From: Candidatus Fermentibacterota bacterium
GTDB taxonomy: Bacteria > Fermentibacterota > Fermentibacteria > Fermentibacterales > JCC-6
Assembly (NCBI GenBank): GCA_963845085.1
Contig: CAWJQI010000001.1
Location: forward strand, 64,001-128,000
Direction of reading: 5' to 3'
DNA: 64,000 bases
The position numbers were made by a program, and so were the translations under genes. Position 1 is the first letter of the stretch. Each line of letters begins with the position of its first letter. The notes under the pieces are model-generated. The model ran no database searches. It worked only from the letters and a program-made list of their open reading frames with translations, and was not told the origin of the DNA. Shown here piece after piece: positions 25,151 through 33,900 of this stretch.

Positions 25151-28100
25151 TCAGGAACGGGGCCGTTCCAGGCCTGCTTCACTTTCCATGCGCTGCGCCT
25201 CACGGCTGAAGGAATCGTTCCAGGCGGCTCCGATGAGAAGGTTTTCATGGCGTTGACGGCGCAGCTCGAACCAGTCCTCCCTGCTGCCGGCTTCAGTGAG
25301 GACAGCGTCAGCCTCATGAGTCCGCCCCGTTCCGTGAAGATGAAGGGCGAGCAGCCCGGCTGCCCTGAAAGAGGCTCTGGGCGTTCCGGCAAGCATCCTT
25401 TCCCGCAGGGCCTCCGCCGGGCCGGGCGGGTTCGTGAGCCTGATCTCCATCCAAATCCGCTGCAGGTCCAGCTCATCCCTGGTGATGCTTATGCTGTTGA
25501 TGCTTATCGGGGCAAGACACCTGTCCCCCACCATCCGCAGAGCCCGCTCGACGGACTCCAGTGAAGCGCTAAGGTCCCCGGTCCGCTCCAGGATAAGTGA
25601 GTTGGTGTACAGGGCGGCAGGACAATCCGGCCGAATCTGAAGGGGTTCTTTCAGTGCTTCCGCCGCCAGCTCCACGTGACCGCCTTCCAGCAGCATCCTG
25701 CACCTGATCAGGTCCATCTCCCTCATGAACTCTGAGTCATCGAGCCGTTCGGCGCTCTTTGCCACTTCCATTGTTCCCGTTTCCACCCTGCGGTTCTGAA
25801 ATGCATGGTACGCAGCATCCACCCCCAGGGCCCGGGAGCATGTCATTCCGTAGAACGATGCCTGTTCTGTGGCAAGACGTTCGGCTTCCCCGAGGTGCTT
25901 AAGGGCAGTTACCGGCTGACCCGCAAGAAGGTAGAATTCTCCGATGTCATGGACGAAGTACCAGTGGAACGTGAAGTCGCCCTCCCTGTGCCTCAGCATG
26001 TCGCGGCATGCCTGGTAGCCCATGCCGGGCGTGTTCATTGCAATCGCGCAGAAGAGCTTCTTGTGTGCGATCTGCACAAGCAACCCACCGTGGCGGGGCA
26101 TTGACCCGTCAAGAAGCGATTCGGCCTCGGTCAGACGGTCCAGAGCCTCGGGTGCCCTGCACGCCCTGCTGAGGGAATCCGACAGTTTTATCAGCGTGTC
26201 CACCCTGTCATTCCCGGTGGTCGAGGAAAGCATCCCCTCAAGCTCATGAACCGCCTCGGGGCTTCTTCCCTGTACACGAAGGCTGTCGGCGGCAAGCAGT
26301 CTGTGCGCGGAAGCCCTCTCCGGAGCGCCGTTGGCGATGGCGTAGTCGGCTGCTTCAAGGGCTGTCTCACGCACTTTCTCCCAGTAGCCGCAGTTCACCT
26401 GGGCACGGATCAGTTCGTCATCGAGATCGAACACGTCTTCCGGAGCAACCTGTCCAGTGGCCACCAGCCCGTCGGCCTGAGCTCTGGCCCTCTCCAGGCA
26501 GGCAACACCAACTCCTGGAAGCCAGGTATTGCGGCTGGCATCGGAGCCTTCCCTGTAGTTCATGTAGGCATTGAAGGTGTTGCCGATCTTCTCGAGGTGA
26601 TACCCGGCCTCGAGAAAATCGCCGTTCTGCCTGAGTGTCCCGGCCAGCGCCGAGTGGGCTGCGATCAGAACGCTTCTGGGCGCTGAGGAATAAACAGCAA
26701 GCCTCACGGCTTCGTTCGGGTAGCGATAGCTCAGAAGAGCCTCGCGGCCGGGCGCCAGCACACCCGCCTTCACAGCGTCGTCGAGAAAACCCAGGACCTC
26801 TCCCTCGGTGAGGCCCGTACTTTCGACAAGGAAAGCAGGGTCGGGGTTCCCCCTCCGGTCTGCCGAAGCGTGCTGAAGTACGAGAAGGCACTCACGGGAG
26901 AGGGCCAGAAGCCTGCTTCCAACAATGCCTTCCACCCTCTCGGGGATCGATGAGAAAGAACCTTCGCCAGGAAGACCCTCGCCCGAAAACTCACCATCCC
27001 GGGAACAGCCCGCCCTCAGGAACTCACAGGCGAAAAGCGGGTTGCCCCCGGAGAACCTGAACACCCTGGCGGAGATATCCTGCAACGGCTTGGATGAACC
27101 GAGCCTGGCCCTCACCAGCTCGCCCACCTGATCACGGTCGAAGGGTTTCAGGTGAAGCTTTCCGAACTGTCCGGATCCGGGGAGAACGGCTGACAACTCC
27201 CCGAGGGAATCGGAGCGGGTGGCAACCACAAGCGAGAAACCCGACGGTATCCCGGCCCGAAGGGCGTAGCCGAGGAAGGATGCCGTCCCGGGATCGAGCC
27301 AGTGTGCGTTGTCAACAAGGAAAACAGTGGGAAGCCGGGTTGAAAAAAGAGACGAGAGGGCTTCGAGCACGGCCAGCGAATCGGGACGTACCAGCGGAGA
27401 TTGCGACCCGTGAAATATTCCCGGAAAGATGCCGCAAAGCACCCGGGACCATGGGGCATCAGTGTGCGAACCGGAGGCCGATACGAGACCCCTGACCCAG
27501 GGCAGCAGGGAAGCCCAGGAGATGCCTGACAACTCGGGTCTCGCCTCGATGCGGCACACCGTACCGGATGGGAAACGCGCAGCTGCCTTTTCCAGAAGAA
27601 GGGTCTTGCCTGAACCAGCGTCGCCGGTCAGAAGCAGCCCCGTGTTCACGGGTGAGGCCTGCGCCTTCAGGATAAAGGCCAGTTCGTCGTCGCGGCCCAC
27701 AAAGACGTCATCGTGCCAGAAAAGGGTCTCACCGGTCTGGTGCGCCCTCCTTATGCAGTTCCCCCCGGCACTTTTGGCCCTGTACATGGCGCGGTCGGCC
27801 GCCCTGAGAACATCACCCGCCAGAGGTCCGTGCAGGGGAAAGAGCGCCTCCCCTATGCTCACGGTGACCCCCCACCGCGGTTTCAGGGTGTTGTTGACAG
27901 CTTCGAGAAGCCGTTCGCCAACCCTGTTCCCCGAATCGGCGCCCGGAACCAGAACGACGAACTCATCCCCTCCGAACCTCACGGGACGGTCTTCGAACCG
28001 GACCCTGTTCACAAGAATCTCCCCCACCCGCTCAAGGACTGCGTCGCCCTCGGCGTGCCCCAGAGTGTCGTTCACCCGCTTGAAGCCGTCCATGTCAAGA

Positions 28101-28255
28101 AACAGGACGGAGAACTCATGATCGAGCGCAATGAGGGAATCAAGTGTGTGCAGAAGGTACCGGCGGTTGGGCAACCCCGTGAGATCGTCCATCCATGACG
28201 ATGAGCTGTGCGCCGGTATCCCGAACCTGGTCAGCAGACCGGGGCTGATGCTCAC
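25151..28255 (-). CDS. Diguanylate cyclase (GGDEF) fused to a STAND-type AAA ATPase and a TPR-like helical region
   Basis: DDLTGLPNRR, DMDGFKRVNDTLGHAEGD, RFGGDEF; FVGRDDEL, GDAGSGKT, VDNAHWLD, SGGNPLF; helical C-terminal half. Confidence 0.88.
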   Translation of the reverse strand: MSISPGLLTRFGIPAHSSSSWMDDLTGLPNRRYLLHTLDSLIALDHEFSVLFLDMDGFKRVNDTLGHAEGDAVLERVGEILVNRVRFEDRPVRFGGDEFVVLVPGADSGNRVGERLLEAVNNTLKPRWGVTVSIGEALFPLHGPLAGDVLRAADRAMYRAKSAGGNCIRRAHQTGETLFWHDDVFVGRDDELAFILKAQASPVNTGLLLTGDAGSGKTLLLEKAAARFPSGTVCRIEARPELSGISWASLLPWVRGLVSASGSHTDAPWSRVLCGIFPGIFHGSQSPLVRPDSLAVLEALSSLFSTRLPTVFLVDNAHWLDPGTASFLGYALRAGIPSGFSLVVATRSDSLGELSAVLPGSGQFGKLHLKPFDRDQVGELVRARLGSSKPLQDISARVFRFSGGNPLFACEFLRAGCSRDGEFSGEGLPGEGSFSSIPERVEGIVGSRLLALSRECLLVLQHASADRRGNPDPAFLVESTGLTEGEVLGFLDDAVKAGVLAPGREALLSYRYPNEAVRLAVYSSAPRSVLIAAHSALAGTLRQNGDFLEAGYHLEKIGNTFNAYMNYREGSDASRNTWLPGVGVACLERARAQADGLVATGQVAPEDVFDLDDELIRAQVNCGYWEKVRETALEAADYAIANGAPERASAHRLLAADSLRVQGRSPEAVHELEGMLSSTTGNDRVDTLIKLSDSLSRACRAPEALDRLTEAESLLDGSMPRHGGLLVQIAHKKLFCAIAMNTPGMGYQACRDMLRHREGDFTFHWYFVHDIGEFYLLAGQPVTALKHLGEAERLATEQASFYGMTCSRALGVDAAYHAFQNRRVETGTMEVAKSAERLDDSEFMREMDLIRCRMLLEGGHVELAAEALKEPLQIRPDCPAALYTNSLILERTGDLSASLESVERALRMVGDRCLAPISINSISITRDELDLQRIWMEIRLTNPPGPAEALRERMLAGTPRASFRAAGLLALHLHGTGRTHEADAVLTEAGSREDWFELRRQRHENLLIGAAWNDSFSREAQRMESEAGLERPRS

Positions 28256-28327
28256 CAAAACCTCCCTTGCTGGAGTGTTTTCTGCGAAGAAAGGCCTGGC
28301 AAGTCAAGGCTTAAAGAATGGGTTCGA

Positions 28328-28362
28328 CGCTCCGCCCCTCCCCGGACTGGAGAGGCGGAGCG
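28328..28362 (-). terminator. GC-rich hairpin downstream of the FG-GAP gene (no clear U-tract)
   Basis: CGCTCCGCCCCTCC-ccggact-GGAGAGGCGGAGCG. Confidence 0.45.
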
Positions 28363-28374
28363 CCTTGAAGAGTG

Positions 28375-29535
28375 TTACAGCTTCACGATCCTGAGCGTGG
28401 ATGACCCTGAAGCGTCGGACACCCTCACCAGGTAGGCTCCCTGGGGAGCGGCGGACGCATCCCAGACGAGGCTTCCGTTGAACGGCCCGCAGAGAAGGGC
28501 TCGACCGGAGAGGTCGAACACCTGCAACGTGGCCCCGGAAAAGCCTGTGCCAGTGATCATGACAGAGCCCATGAACGGGTTCTCACCCGCAGCGAGGGTT
28601 CTCTCCTGGACAGGAGCGACTCCGCCCCCGATCCCGGTCAAGTTCTGGATCCACACCCAGACGAAACCGTTGTAGTCGCTCGTGAGCATGTCGGGAAGGC
28701 CGTCTTCGTTCCAGTCATCTATCCAGAGCCTCATGCCGGAGTACTTGGTGGCTATGGAAACGCCGCCGTTGAACAGAGGCGCATCGTTCGTTCCGGTGTT
28801 TTCGTAGTAGTAGACGTTGCTGTTGTCGGCACCGCAGAGCAGGTCCTTCATCCCGTCGCCGTTCATGTCGTATACCTGCGGGCAGTTCCTGTAGTGGGCG
28901 ATCGCGGTTGAACCGCTCTGCACGAGGCTGTAGCTGCTGAACACGGGTGCGGAATCGCTTCCGTCGTTGATGTAGAGCCTGACGTTCCCGGGGCTCTCGT
29001 TCCCCAGGAGCATGTCGAGTTCGCCGTCCTCGTTCCAGTCAACAACCACCGGGGCGGAGTTCGAACCGACATTGATCAATCACACCGGCGCAGTTGATCT
29101 TGGGCATCTGGGTCAGAGTGATTGGGCTGTCGGAGGTTCTGCGGAAATAGTTGACGTAGCCGTTCCGGTCGCCAACGATGATGTCGAGCATGCCGTCGTT
29201 GTTCCAATCCACGACCTGTGGATTCGTCGAGCCGGTGCATCAACCGTAGGGCAGCGTTATGGGGCTGCCGTCGGCGTAAAGAGCGAAGAGGTGTAGAAGA
29301 CGGGGTTCTCGTTGGTTCCCTCGTTCCTGTAGAAATTTATGTTGCCGTTCGTGAACTGCCCCAGCACGAGGTCCTTAAGGCCGTCGCCGTCCCAGTCGAC
29401 CACACATGGTGCGCCGTAGTAGCCCACATCGATGAAGGTCCCGGCGCATGTGAGCTGATAGGATGGCTGCCAGTCCGGCATCCAGGCCATTGCGACAGCT
29501 GCTGCAAGGAGCGTCAGAGTGATCGTTGCCTTCAT
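28375..29535 (-). CDS. Secreted FG-GAP/VCBS-repeat protein with T9SS-type C-terminal domain; probable selenoprotein (UGA at 29240-29242); two compensating 1-bp indels
   Basis: Signal peptide MKATITLTLLAAAVAMA; repeats DWDGDGLKD, DWNNDGMLD, DWNEDGELD, DMNGDGMKD, DWNEDGLPD; CTD NPF..VFDLSGR..WDA..GAYLVRV. The middle segment (29080-29278) reads YADGSPITLPYG*CTGSTNPQVVDWNNDG in a shifted frame. Confidence 0.82.
29206..29242 (-). promoter_or_regulatory. Putative bacterial SECIS element after an in-frame UGA
   Basis: UGA-UGCACCGGCUCGACG-AAUCCAC-AGGUC-GUGGAUU: perfect 7-bp stem; the loop starts 22 nt after the UGA; loop AGGUC resembles the E. coli fdhF SECIS apical loop. Confidence 0.72.
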
Positions 29536-29664
29536 CTGCCCTTCCCTTCCAATGGCGGTTGAGGCTGTAAATGAGTTGCCCGGTTGTGTTTCCGGAAACC
29601 TTGCTGATATATCCGGACTTGCGCTTCCCAAGTCAACGGCAGGAACGAAGGCGGCCGGCGGTTC

Positions 29665-30936
29665 TCACGCCTTGAACGGTATCTCCGCGCTCATGTGCAC
29701 CTTCATGCACTCCATCATCTTCCTGTGGTCAAGCGCCCCGCTGGTTTCCCGTATGGAATGCATGGCCAGCATGGGGTTGCCCACGTCGACGGTCGGAATG
29801 CCCGTTCGTGTAGCCGTGATGGGTCCTATTGTGCTTCCGGCCTGGGAATCGGTTCTGCCCGTGAACTCCTGAAGGGTGACACCCGCCGCCTTTGCGCACC
29901 TGAAGAAGTAGGCCCCCGTCTCCACCCCTGTCGCGTAGTTCTGCATCGCGCTGCGCTTGACAGCGGGTCCGCCGTTCAGCTTCGGCTTCGACTGGGCGCT
30001 GTGCCTGTTCGCCCAGTCGGGATGGACGGCGTGGGCGCAGTCGGCGCTCACCATGACGCTCCGCGAGACAGCCCTGAAGTACTCATCACGGCTCCCGCTC
30101 AGCCGCTCGAGCAGGGTTTCGAGGAAAGGGCCGGCGGCGCCGGCGGTTGTCCTGCTGCCGACCTCCTCGTTGTCGAAGATGATCGCGATGGCCGTCGCTT
30201 CGGGGCTCCCTGCCTGAACCAGCGCGTTGAGCGAGGCATGACAGCTCGCCAGATCGTCGATCCTCGAAGAAACCAGGAAATCCCGGTTGATCCCCGCGAG
30301 CACCGCTGCCTCGAGGCTGACAAGCTCGGCGGAGAAGAACGAAAGTTCGTCCGTTCCAAGCCCGGCGGCGTCGGCAACGGCCTTCCTGAGCGCCGGGTAG
30401 TCGTCGGCCGACGAGAAAATGGGGTGCATTTCGCTTTCGGGATTGGCGCTGAACCCCTTTTTGTTCACCTCGCGGTTCAGATGGATGGCCGGCGAGACTA
30501 TCCTGAGAAATGGCTCGCGGATGTGGTACAGGACCACTCTGCCGTCCCCGGTCACCGCCCTACCGGCAAGCCCCAGGTCCCTGTCGAACCATGTGCTGAA
30601 CAGGGGACCGCCGTAGACCTCGATGCCCAGGGTTGCGAGCCCCTCTCGGTAGGAGAAGGGATCGCTCTTCAGGTGGAGCCCCGGAGCGTCGGTGTGCGCG
30701 CCGGTGATTCGGAAACCCGACTCAGAAGGCTTTTTTCGGCCCGTCACGAAGGCGGCGAGGGTGGACGGCGAGTACATGGTGAAATAGCCCTTTCCGGGGA
30801 CGGTTTTCCATTGATCCCCGGGGTTGAGCCTCTGAAAGCCGTTCTGCTCGAGAAATCCGGCGCTCACCGCTCCCGCGTGGGCGGCTGTGGGACTTTGGTC
30901 GAGGTATGGCAGCAACGATTCCAGAATGGGCTCCAT
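29665..30936 (-). CDS. apeB: M18-family (aspartyl) aminopeptidase
   Basis: GAHTDAPG, EVYGG..WFDRDLGLAG, AIHLNRE, RIDDL, FDNEEVGS, SADCAHAVHP, GSTIGP, MHSIRE. Confidence 0.93.
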   Translation of the reverse strand: MEPILESLLPYLDQSPTAAHAGAVSAGFLEQNGFQRLNPGDQWKTVPGKGYFTMYSPSTLAAFVTGRKKPSESGFRITGAHTDAPGLHLKSDPFSYREGLATLGIEVYGGPLFSTWFDRDLGLAGRAVTGDGRVVLYHIREPFLRIVSPAIHLNREVNKKGFSANPESEMHPIFSSADDYPALRKAVADAAGLGTDELSFFSAELVSLEAAVLAGINRDFLVSSRIDDLASCHASLNALVQAGSPEATAIAIIFDNEEVGSRTTAGAAGPFLETLLERLSGSRDEYFRAVSRSVMVSADCAHAVHPDWANRHSAQSKPKLNGGPAVKRSAMQNYATGVETGAYFFRCAKAAGVTLQEFTGRTDSQAGSTIGPITATRTGIPTVDVGNPMLAMHSIRETSGALDHRKMMECMKVHMSAEIPFKA

Positions 30937-30937
30937 G

Positions 30938-33900
30938 TCAGTCTCCGTTCTTCTCTGCGTATTTCTTGACCTGAAAGATGAAGGCCTCGAGCCTCGATGA
31001 GTTGTCGGTGTCTTCCTGGCCGTCAAAAGCCAGGTTGAGCCACGGAAGGTCGGGCCTGTCCCTTCTTATCCTTCGTGACACCGCTGTAACAACTGTTCCC
31101 GGCAGACAGCCGAAGGGAAGCACGTTGACCGCCCCCTGAATGCCACCGTGGGTCATCAGGGCGAGCGGCGCGCCGATGCACAGTATTGCCTCGCCGCCGA
31201 TGTTCTCCGGCATGTAGGGCTCGGCAGCCCTGAGCACGGCTTCGGCACCGGCGTGGGGAGTGTCGGCGAAAAGCCTTTCAAAGGGCTTGTCGACGGGGCG
31301 CTTCATCATCGCCATGACTCCGGCCTTGAGTTTTCCGGCAACCACGTTGCCGTTGCGTCCCAGTCTTTTCGACTTCTCGATGAAGCTGAGATTAACGAAT
31401 TCCAGCCACTCGGCAACCGGGCTGTACACAACCTCGGCGCCAAGCGCCTCGATGCGGTCGAGGGTGAAGTCGTTCGCGTAGGGGTCGTTCCTGATGTAGA
31501 TCTCACCGAAAACCGCCACTCTGGGTTTTCTTCGGGTGTCATCCATCGGAATGGCCGAAAAAGCCTTTGCGGCTTCGGCTGCCGCCTTTCCGAGGCTTCC
31601 CCCCTTCTCCGCCCTTTCGCAGACCCTTTCGAGGTGTTCGCCGTAGACCCTGTCCGTCTCGCCCGGGTTCTTCTCGTACGGGCGGATCCTGAGCCTGGCC
31701 CTGTAGAGGTTGTCTACAAGGCTGATCCCCTGATACAGCGTTTTCTGCCTGTTGAACGTTGAGAAACCCTCGACGCTCGAATAGCTGTCGCTGCTGCTGG
31801 ACGTGACAATGGGCACGTTCGGGTACCCCAGCCGTTCAAGGATCATCCCGTGATAGTGGCAGTACTGCCCGAACCGGCATGGTCCGCTTGCCGTTCCCAT
31901 GAAAAACGCGGTTTTCTCCGGAGGGTTGTTCTCAAGTATTTCCATCATGCTGCCCGAGGTGATGATGGCGGGGTAGCACTCCCGGCCGCTGGTGACGCTT
32001 CTGCCAAGCGCAACCGTCCGGCCGGTCGTGGGCGGGGCCACGCGCGCATCATGGCCTGCGCTTCTGGCGACGGCCGCCGCGAGGTAACTGGCATCACTGA
32101 GATAGGGTATCCAGAGAGTCCTGCCCCCGAGCGATTGTTCCAAGGGAGGGCATGGAGCGGGCTCCTCCCCACGCATAGGTCTTTCCGCCTCAAGGGAGTC
32201 AAGAAAGGCCTCGCACCTGGTGATGATCCCGGCATCGGCCGCGTGCTCGTCTATCTCGATGCCGAGATGCGGCTTGTCCCCCATGATCTCCGAGAAGATG
32301 TGCTCGATGAAGCTGTCGGGACCGCAGCCGAAATTGGATATGTAGACCGCGTTGAGGCGGTCGTCGTCACGGACGGCCATGGCCGCGGCAAGGATCTTCT
32401 GGCCGTATGCCCAGTACATGTTCCTGTGCTTCTTCCAGACCTTCTCCATCGGAAGGTCGAGGAAATCCATCGGGATCACGAGCGCACCGAGCCTGGCAAG
32501 CTTCTGGGGAAGATCGGTGTTGACCATGGGATCGTTCCCGTTGTAGGGCCTGCTCACGACGACGAAGGCGCGCCTTTCCCCGATCGAAGCCAACGCTTTC
32601 TCGCCCTCTTTCAGAAGGGCTTTCCTGAACCTTTCCTGAGCGGAGACAGCCTTCCGGCCCGCCTTTGAAACTGCTTCAGCGGAGAAACCGAGCCCCTTCG
32701 CCATCTCGACAAGGGGCATCATCCACTGCCTTCCGGGCAGGCTGAAGTCGAGAACGGGCCTGAGCGTTGTTGGTCTGGTCCTCTCCTTCAGCGACAGCCC
32801 GGCGTCGAGCAGGTACGGGGCCGCCTCGACGAAGGGACAGTTGTAACTCTCCGTGAACTCCCCCGCAGCCGGCGCATTCCGAAGGATGCTGGGGATGAAC
32901 AGGTGGTCGACCTCCATCTCGAGAAGCCTTGCCACGTGACCATGGGCTATCTTCACGGGAAAACACGTTTCGGCCGCCATGCTCTCGACCCCCCGGTGAA
33001 CCGTGGCCGAATCGGACTGCCCGCTCGTGACGACGCGGCACCCGAGTTCCCTGAAGAACGTGCCGAAGAACGGGTACAGCTCCCAGAACCACAGGGCTTC
33101 GGGTATCCCAACGACAGGTCCGTTGGGTTCAAGGCCGGATTCCTCCGCGAACTCCCTGAGAAGCTGCTCCCTGCGGGGGAAAAGGTTCTCGCCCCCTGCC
33201 GTGGTCTGGAGGCTTCCCGTCTCGTATTTCTCGCACCTTCCTCCGTAGAACAGCTTTCTGCCGTCCTGCAGAGTGACACGATGAATCTCGCAGCTGTTCG
33301 AGCAGGCCCTGCAGACGAAGCTGTCCTGCTGCCAGCTCTCGCCGGTGAGCGCGAAGCCGCGGAACAATGTTGCGGAGGGGTTCATGTCCCGCACGAGAAG
33401 CGCCGCCCCGATGGCACCCGTGACGTCGTGATGCGGTGGAACAATGACAGTCCTGTCTCCGAGAACCGCGTTGAAGGCGGCCACGACCCCCTGGTTGAAG
33501 GCTGTGCCCCCCTGGAAGAATATCTTCCTGCCGATCGGGCGCCTTCCCACGACCCGGTGCAGGTAGTTCCTGACGACAGAAACACAGAGGCCGGCCACGA
33601 TGTCGCGAAGCGGAACCCCGTCGGACTGGTGGCTGACCACATCGGTTTCCATGAAGACGGTGCAGCGTTCGCCGAGCCTTGCCGGTGCGAGGGATTCGAG
33701 TGCAAGCGGCCCGAAATCCGTGATGGGGATGCCGAGCTTTTCCGCCTGTTCCTCGAGGAAGCTGCCCGTGCCGGCGGCGCAGACCTTGTTCATCTCGAAA
33801 TCGACGACGCGGCCGTTTCGAAGGGAGATGAACTTCGAGTCCTGCCCGCCTATCTCGAACACGGTCTCAACGCCGGGATCAATGTGCAGCGCGGCGCGGG

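Follow-up and report, generated by a model that had tools for sequence, protein, structure and literature searches.

A probable selenoprotein family on an exported five-bladed FG-GAP propeller in Candidatus Fermentibacterota

Bacterial selenoprotein genes of the SelB/SECIS type combine an in-frame UGA and a hairpin within the open reading frame with selA, selB, selD and tRNA-Sec (PMC13188914). The rules set out for the bacterial element (bSECIS) comprise a loop of 3–9 nt, a stem of 4–16 bp, a G in the first two loop positions and a spacing of 16–37 nt, and the consensus model has a free-energy limit of −7.5 kcal/mol (PMC13188914). The 119-family catalogue, as given in Table 1 of the same work, includes no FG-GAP, VCBS, T9SS or propeller family by name or domain, and the accessible text of BSepDB (PMC13326102), where Fermentibacterota genomes are included, holds no such family term. 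Nothing relevant stood among the listed matches of full-text literature searches for selenoproteins of this architecture or lineage, and the candidates of a groundwater survey may include this family. The combination of FG-GAP and UGA is, nevertheless, already in print in another architecture: S9 Table of Kim et al. 2016 (PMC4807772) describes four ASPIC/UnbV FG-GAP selenoprotein candidates, whose genes are split at the UGA, with a SECIS element in three of the four and Gly in the closest homologue.

The gene that we compare with these systems lies on the minus strand at 28375–29535 of a 64,000-nt stretch of Candidatus Fermentibacterota DNA (the window). Orthologue comparison and a structure model point to an exported five-bladed FG-GAP propeller selenoprotein with a T9SS type A tail. 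It shares the in-frame UGA, the hairpin within the ORF and the decoding genes with the bacterial SelB/SECIS selenoproteins, but differs from them by its repeat scaffold and its T9SS tail. Compared by description only, the candidates of Kim et al. are CRTAC1-like with ASPIC/UnbV, whereas the family described here has five blades and a T9SS tail, and a Pfam scan of an intact orthologue gave no ASPIC/UnbV match. The Omp28-related selenoprotein GOS_C (NF045500) has a similar export context, but holds the UxxC of thioredoxin-like proteins; an NCBIfam scan of the propeller gene gave no NF045500 match, and a search of the source genome (G000) matched two other places only.

Other families resemble the gene in its Se/S pair or in its fold. 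SaoL, SaoC, HgcA, MbdU and KCU-star, as listed in Table 1 of PMC13188914, likewise hold a vicinal pair in the form of adjacent Cys-Sec. The propeller family differs from these adjacent Cys-Sec selenoproteins by a mostly U-C order and an internal loop location, with no sequence relationship shown. Mammalian TrxR, with its GCUG, is a further protein with adjacent Cys-Sec. The DxDxDG repeat loops are common to the FG-GAP/VCBS (PF13517) repeats of integrin alpha and CRTAC1; integrin propellers have seven blades, in contrast to five in this family. Propellers of GH43 and GH62 share the five-bladed fold (Z up to 18.9) at 7–15% identity, which is a fold match alone. To our knowledge, none of the integrin alpha, CRTAC1 or GH43/GH62 propellers is a selenoprotein.

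As assembled, the gene consists of three reading-frame pieces between an ATG at 29535 and a TAA at 28377–28375, with a purine-rich GGAAGGG (29539–29545), 3 nt before the ATG, as a putative ribosome-binding site. The start frame holds a signal-peptide-like N-terminus read by eye (29485–29535; residues 1–17, with Lys, a hydrophobic stretch and A-M-A) and blade 1, the first FG-GAP repeat (29282–29484; PF13517, E 3e-5), and is closed by a TAA at 29259–29257 after 92 aa. Blade 2 (29082–29281), the Sec-bearing repeat, is found in a different frame, where the sequence around the recoded codon reads ITLPYG-TGA-CTGSTNPQVVDWNNDGMLDIIVGD. The TGA (29242–29240), preceded by GGT and most likely encoding Sec as residue 99 of the precursor in view of its conservation, is directly followed by a TGC Cys codon (29237–29239), forming a U-C dyad. 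The 234-aa C-terminal piece is in the start frame again, and bears blades 3–5 (28630–29079), which are FG-GAP_3 repeats with DxDxDG calcium-type loops according to Pfam and the model, and the T9SS type A sorting domain (28381–28581). Just past the stop, a 16-bp GC-rich hairpin with no U tract (28326–28364; −39.1 kcal/mol in a 91-nt fold) is a possible terminator or stabiliser between the propeller gene and the GGDEF gene, although a promoter and terminator scan of the stretch called none, this hairpin included. An Rfam scan gave no match at E ≤ 1. No RNA data set was listed as containing the stretch, a result that carries no information on its expression.

The first-pass annotation had described two pieces joined by read-through of the TGA alone into a single protein of about 386 aa. 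The TGA, the Cys and the additional FG-GAP repeat were confirmed, and the length agrees with that of the intact same-genus orthologues (n = 5), which are continuous frames of 384–390 aa; two further one-base frameshifts in the window copy had been missed. In the alignment with these five orthologues, the window copy lacks one base near 29281, beside a short T run (frame break 1, 29275–29295), and has one extra base at 29077–29081 (frame break 2). Since the two slips cancel in length, the window span resembles 386 codons; with three frames and two one-base slips, however, the window as assembled cannot give the full protein by read-through alone.

The UGA is conserved well beyond the source genome. 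A search with the middle piece gave matches in 42 of 61 genomes, that is, in the source genome and in 41 of its 46 same-order relatives, and in none of 14 distant genomes. Exactly one TGA in a long frame is present in 98 of the 99 matches listed at E < 1e-12, the exception (L049) having Asp at the Sec position and no such hairpin. The codon is invariant in all 35 aligned loci, never being replaced by TAA or TAG, and homology carries on in frame downstream, as the first-pass annotation had proposed to check. Across the phylum, 59 of 70 genomes contain the pattern TGA-N17-hairpin, with up to 7 copies each (147 matches summed over genomes, at least one of which looks unrelated), and the reversed control gave 0. 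TGA homologues were also found on contigs labelled by their depositors as Stahlbacteria, Phycisphaerales, Ignavibacteriaceae and Desulfuromonas sp. SDB. Among database proteins, nearly all top matches are 250–300 aa long and start just past the TGA; this downstream part is publicly annotated as 'T9SS domain protein' and has no signal peptide. In three same-genus genomes (L021, L022, L023), a tandem paralogue with C-S-Y-G-U-C-T-G-C lies upstream of the orthologue; it was not found in the source genome, where an M18 peptidase takes that place.

The stem-loop AAUCCAC-AGGUC-GUGGAUU (29206–29224), which overlaps the codons N-P-Q-V-V-D-W, is predicted from fold and conservation to be the upper part of a bacterial SECIS element. 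The perfect 7-bp stem of AAUCCAC (29224–29218) and GUGGAUU (29212–29206), the 5-nt AGGUC loop (29217–29213) and the 22-nt distance from the UGA to the loop, all noticed at first pass, were confirmed on the minus strand. Its loop, stem and spacing all lie within the ranges described for bSECIS (PMC13188914), the second and third loop nucleotides are both G, and the hairpin is of the SelD type. The free energy of the isolated 19-nt stem-loop is −7.3 kcal/mol, and −10.3 kcal/mol with flanks, compared with the limit of −7.5 given for the consensus model; the folding z-score of the 78-nt stretch is −0.05, a stability that is not unusual.

Selection on the hairpin is seen in its codons. In a set of 34 loci, there is almost no variation in the stem codons (AAT 34/34, CCA 30/34, CAG 34/34, GTG 32/32) and GGT stands just before the TGA in 31, while synonymous sites away from the stem range from about 0.3 to 0.85, and conserved four-fold codons there from 0.3 to 0.6. 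This freezing of synonymous sites exactly at the stem argues for a hairpin under selection as RNA. The hairpin census covers 99 sites, after a false one (L059) was dropped from 100, and 19 of the 99 were found via the hairpin pattern. Anchored on the protein motif, at least six of the seven pairs are kept in 95 of the 99 distinct sites, compared with a mean of 14 and a maximum of 26 after synonymous recoding (n = 1000), and with 3 of 188 equivalent positions in other blades. If only the sites found by protein likeness are counted, 76 of 80 keep at least six pairs, and the remaining four hold a hairpin of 8 bp that differs in sequence and is displaced by one base. Double changes from A-U to G-C occur at two stem pairs, in kin that are not independent, and covariation in the core set is thin (1/7 pairs). 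The stem is hence kept across homologues, the lack of which would have counted against the first-pass annotation, and compensatory changes are present.

A related hairpin occurs in the selD of the source genome, where GGT-TGA precedes a stem of 7 bp around an AGGUU loop that lies nearer by one base. When hairpins were sought genome-wide with loose settings, much noise came up (423 and 127 matches among 82,009 TGA trimers); the class with 7 bp and 22–23 nt comprises only SelD, the propeller gene and one non-coding match. Three members of a single genus (L166, L169, L177) also share a TGA with TCCAC-AGGAA-GTGGA that lies outside the FG-GAP family and could be another conserved element or selenoprotein.

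The machinery for Sec insertion, for which a search had been proposed, is complete in the source genome: selA, selB, selD and tRNA-Sec all score above curated cut-offs, and selD itself has one TGA. The gene selA is present in 44 of the 46 same-order relatives, and was not found in G037 and G046 (80% and 77% complete), both of which have TGA homologues. Beyond the same-order set, it is present in four of the five genomes with divergent TGA homologues and was not found in the fifth, G087, despite its TGA homologue.

Two other readings concern the UGA and the state of the window copy. The TGA could be a true stop, in a two-gene or TGATG-coupled arrangement, or a Trp codon, with the hairpin serving another purpose. 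This is very improbable, even though TGA is the commonest stop of the source genome (646 of 961 long ORFs), an ATG overlaps the TGA, the downstream part is catalogued in databases as a separate protein, and one homologue (P0218) has Trp at the position. Homology keeps the TGA frame rather than that of the overlapping ATG, and variants with TGA-GGA, TGA-CCC or TGA-AAT have no ATG at all; on these two grounds coupling was ruled out. A real stop would also be expected to drift to TAA or TAG, and the downstream piece has no signal peptide of its own. Genome-wide reassignment of UGA to Trp was rejected because TGA is in use as a stop. Joining across the TGA is needed, since the signal peptide precedes it, the sorting domain follows it, and the model is one compact fold. 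Judged from these sequences, decoding of the UGA as Sec, giving one 386-aa precursor, is very likely. It is unlikely, though less so, that the family is a real selenoprotein while the copy of the window strain has two genuine frameshifts and became a pseudogene recently. Such a reading would account for two breaks within 200 nt of one gene, which exceeds the background rate for a 1.2-kb gene; break 1 lies outside independent contig cover, and no match was obtained in G006 and G007, both of the same genus, from which it follows that the gene can be lost. Yet each slip alters the length of a short T run, the TGA and the SECIS element are intact in the window copy, a near-identical contig is free of break 2, and other genes of the source genome, sprA among them, are broken mid-gene too.

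The contigs in question come from four sequencing runs, compared at 80% likeness and with depths of 2–4. Contig 10 of run X2 (266 nt, 5 substitutions, spanning 28913–29176, depth 2) lacks base 29081, as the five orthologues do; a contig of run X1 spans the TGA, with no change listed at that codon, and frame break 1 has no covering contig among the four runs. The background of frame breaks was taken from 168 ORFs in 220 kb of two relatives, 131 of them non-shadow and 80 scorable on the source genome, where six of the 80 were found in two frames, one being the orthologue of the propeller gene. Judged by eye, mid-gene breaks affect 4 of 79 other genes of the source genome, versus 0 of 47 between the two relatives, where the three flagged comparisons of 47 were all 5' overhangs. 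The four broken genes, continuous in relatives, lie at about 128870–130520 and 178800–180120 of C1 and at about 691060–692380 and 695890–697210 of C5. The T9SS translocon gene sprA (G000:C1:245025–248496; L146, L147) is likewise in two frames in the assembly, probably through another indel error. Counted at the DNA level with intergenic regions included, indels in the source genome were not separable from controls (37/90 kb, 45/82 kb and 16/45 kb). Given the unbroken frames of the five orthologues and the near-identical X2 contig without the extra base, the window copy probably owes its two one-base slips to sequencing or assembly errors.

The joined protein is predicted to fold as a single unit. 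The Pfam scan of the intact orthologue gave PF13517 at 90.4 bits over five FG-GAP_3 stretches, and the structure predicted from 29 read-through sequences (pLDDT 91) is one compact fold with a propeller (residues 1–285), a linker and a beta-sandwich tail. The single propeller with a C-terminal domain that the first-pass annotation looked for in a model of the joined protein is thus what the prediction gives. Its nearest folds are five-bladed GH43/GH62 propellers (Z 18.9, rmsd 3.1, 242 aligned, 10% identity), and sequence and fold searches returned generic propellers only. In blade 2, a five-residue insertion ahead of the first strand bears G-U-C-T-G. Among the conserved Arg residues, R107 is invariant and R199 and R252 are near-invariant (mature numbering). 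In propellers, calcium loops lie on one face, and the ligand face bears the linkers and 2-3 hairpins; by this topology, the insertion with Sec and Cys and the conserved Arg would both be placed on the ligand-binding face.

The T9SS C-terminal domain proposed at first pass was borne out by profile matches. The sorting-domain profile TIGR04183 (cut-off 23) scores 33.2 bits on the window gene and 39.7 bits on the orthologue, PF18962 stays just under its cut-off (26.3 bits versus 27), and a signal-peptide pattern was seen by eye in all full-length members. Of the T9SS translocon, the source genome holds SprA over cut-off, in two frames, and PorV over cut-off at four places, together with 87 matches to TIGR04183. 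Export to the cell surface through T9SS is accordingly supported as probable. The statement that a T9SS-cargo selenoprotein would be unusual did not hold as a claim of uniqueness: NF045500 exists, and an Omp28-like U-x-x-C gene (L152; G000:C4:683778–684443, minus strand) is present in the source genome too. This gene has a signal peptide, an in-frame TGA in W-D-G-U-G-T-C followed by a hairpin and, as judged by eye, a T9SS-like tail, and its match to NF045500 is weak (29 bits versus a cut-off of 200). Homologous propellers with PEP-CTERM-like or dockerin tails were also observed (P0251, P0262, P0266, P0212, P0226, P0264, P0034), from which it follows that the propeller domain is exported by different sorting systems.

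The residues around Sec vary. The 99 TGA sites comprise 84 with U-C (including three U-C-C and one C-U-C), six with C-U, three with U-x-x-C and six with no Cys within three residues of Sec; in four of the last six, which are S-T-U-G-H proteins, an insertion in blade 1 carries a Cys that is possibly the partner in space. The vicinal U-C pair of the first-pass annotation therefore applies to most members but not to all, and its redox role would be an interpretation of the motif. The sole clear Cys-for-Sec homologue, P0219, aligns G-C-C-G with G-U-C-Q-G, thereby supplying the Cys homologue that had been sought; P0218 has G-W-C-Q-G, with Trp at the Sec position. Both are known from the protein alone and group with TGA-bearing U-C-Q-G members (support 99). 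A metagenome scan with P0219 gave one weak locus, and in the Atlas the Cys homologue matched VCBS/FG-GAP clusters, of which a 94-aa cluster of 515 members, commonest in Ca. Fermentibacterota (score 0.89), offers a lead.

Other homologues have Asp, Glu or Ala at the Sec position and keep the fold (L049, P0179, P0025, P0206, P0207), and Sec is consequently dispensable for the scaffold. P0179, P0025 and P0207, with neither Sec nor Cys, nest among U-C members, which suggests losses, and the gene of P0179 retains the hairpin. Homologues with dockerin or PEP-CTERM tails hold one Cys or C-x-x-C in the loop and group with a U-C-F-G-S-C member. These groupings come from a quick, effectively unrooted tree with long branches, of which only supported groups were used and no order of events was read. 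In the tandem pair L101, one copy has U-C and the other has G-E-T with a full hairpin, which reads as a recent loss of Sec after duplication.

Taken in sequence, SelB would bind the hairpin 22 nt past the UGA and bring Sec-tRNA, yielding the 386-aa precursor, which would pass the inner membrane via its signal peptide and then be directed by its C-terminal domain to a T9SS-like channel (SprA/PorV) for exit. The mature protein would be a five-bladed calcium-type FG-GAP propeller with Sec and Cys in the five-residue insertion of the linker that leads into blade 2, which would put the dyad on the ligand-binding face near the conserved Arg. The Cys partner shifts among positions −1, +1 and +3 and rarely vanishes, which argues for a functional Se-S pair. 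For its work, a reversible Se-S redox reaction with a sulfur compound or oxidant outside the cell ranks first, at somewhat under an even chance; soft-metal binding comes second, and a lectin or adhesin third.

In the second of these readings, the U-C dyad of the same selenoprotein would be a surface site that scavenges or sequesters soft metals (Hg, Cu, Ag, As(III) or Zn), with a Cys before blade 4 possibly as an extra ligand. The Cys-rich variants C-x-x-x-U-C-x-x-C, U-C-C and C-U-C, the U-G-H variant, the frequent R-C-C-P or R-N-C-P ahead of blade 4 and the presence of up to seven paralogues per genome, which suits a binding family, all fit such a site, as do the CU dyads of the metal-linked SaoL, HgcA and MbdU listed in Table 1 of PMC13188914. 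The loop also takes the canonical redox spacings U-x-x-C and C-x-x-C (L180–L182, P0034), however, and no metal-resistance genes were found by eye among the neighbour clusters, which leaves metal binding rather doubtful. Less probable still is a lectin or adhesin in which a non-catalytic Se-S bond, structural or acting as a redox switch, shapes the binding loop. The FG-GAP repeats with calcium-type loops as in integrins and CRTAC1, the sugar-binding GH43/GH62 propellers as nearest folds, the conserved Arg and aromatic residues and the persistence of non-Sec paralogues would agree with it; but fold matches at 7–15% identity say nothing on function, and upkeep of UGA and SECIS across phyla seems costly for a merely structural bond. 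A more speculative and rather unlikely reading is that the family, with other exported selenoproteins, forms a surface Se-S relay, in which Sec and a movable Cys (U-C, C-U, U-x-x-C or a blade-1-loop Cys) would be a new type of active site. Its substrates might be sulfur species, oxidants or soft metals at the surface of the anaerobic Ca. Fermentibacterota.

Altogether, the sequences support, with a probability of roughly 0.8, a real and uncatalogued selenoprotein family of Ca. Fermentibacterota, multi-copy and exported, with relatives in a few other phyla, standard Sec decoding and an unusual five-bladed propeller scaffold, whose function is read from its motifs. It adds a family on a scaffold that has no Sec association in the 119-family catalogue as tabulated (PMC13188914), and with up to seven copies it may rank among the most numerous selenoproteins of these genomes. 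In public annotation no member extends across the UGA, so selenoproteome counts for the phylum are too low. The loop series of U-C, C-U, U-x-x-C, C-C, single Cys and no Cys is a natural set for asking why Sec is kept over Cys, and bears on the role of Sec outside the cell in anoxic habitats.

Neighbour clustering of 60 loci revealed no conserved operon, only clade-specific synteny, the largest non-family cluster covering 11 loci, and paralogues of the family are often in tandem. Directly downstream on the minus strand (25151–28258), a 1035-aa protein with GGDEF, AAA_16 (STAND-like) and TPR domains also adjoins the orthologue in four loci. Directly upstream, on the same strand (29665–31026), lies an M18 aminopeptidase, which adjoins members of the family in seven loci.
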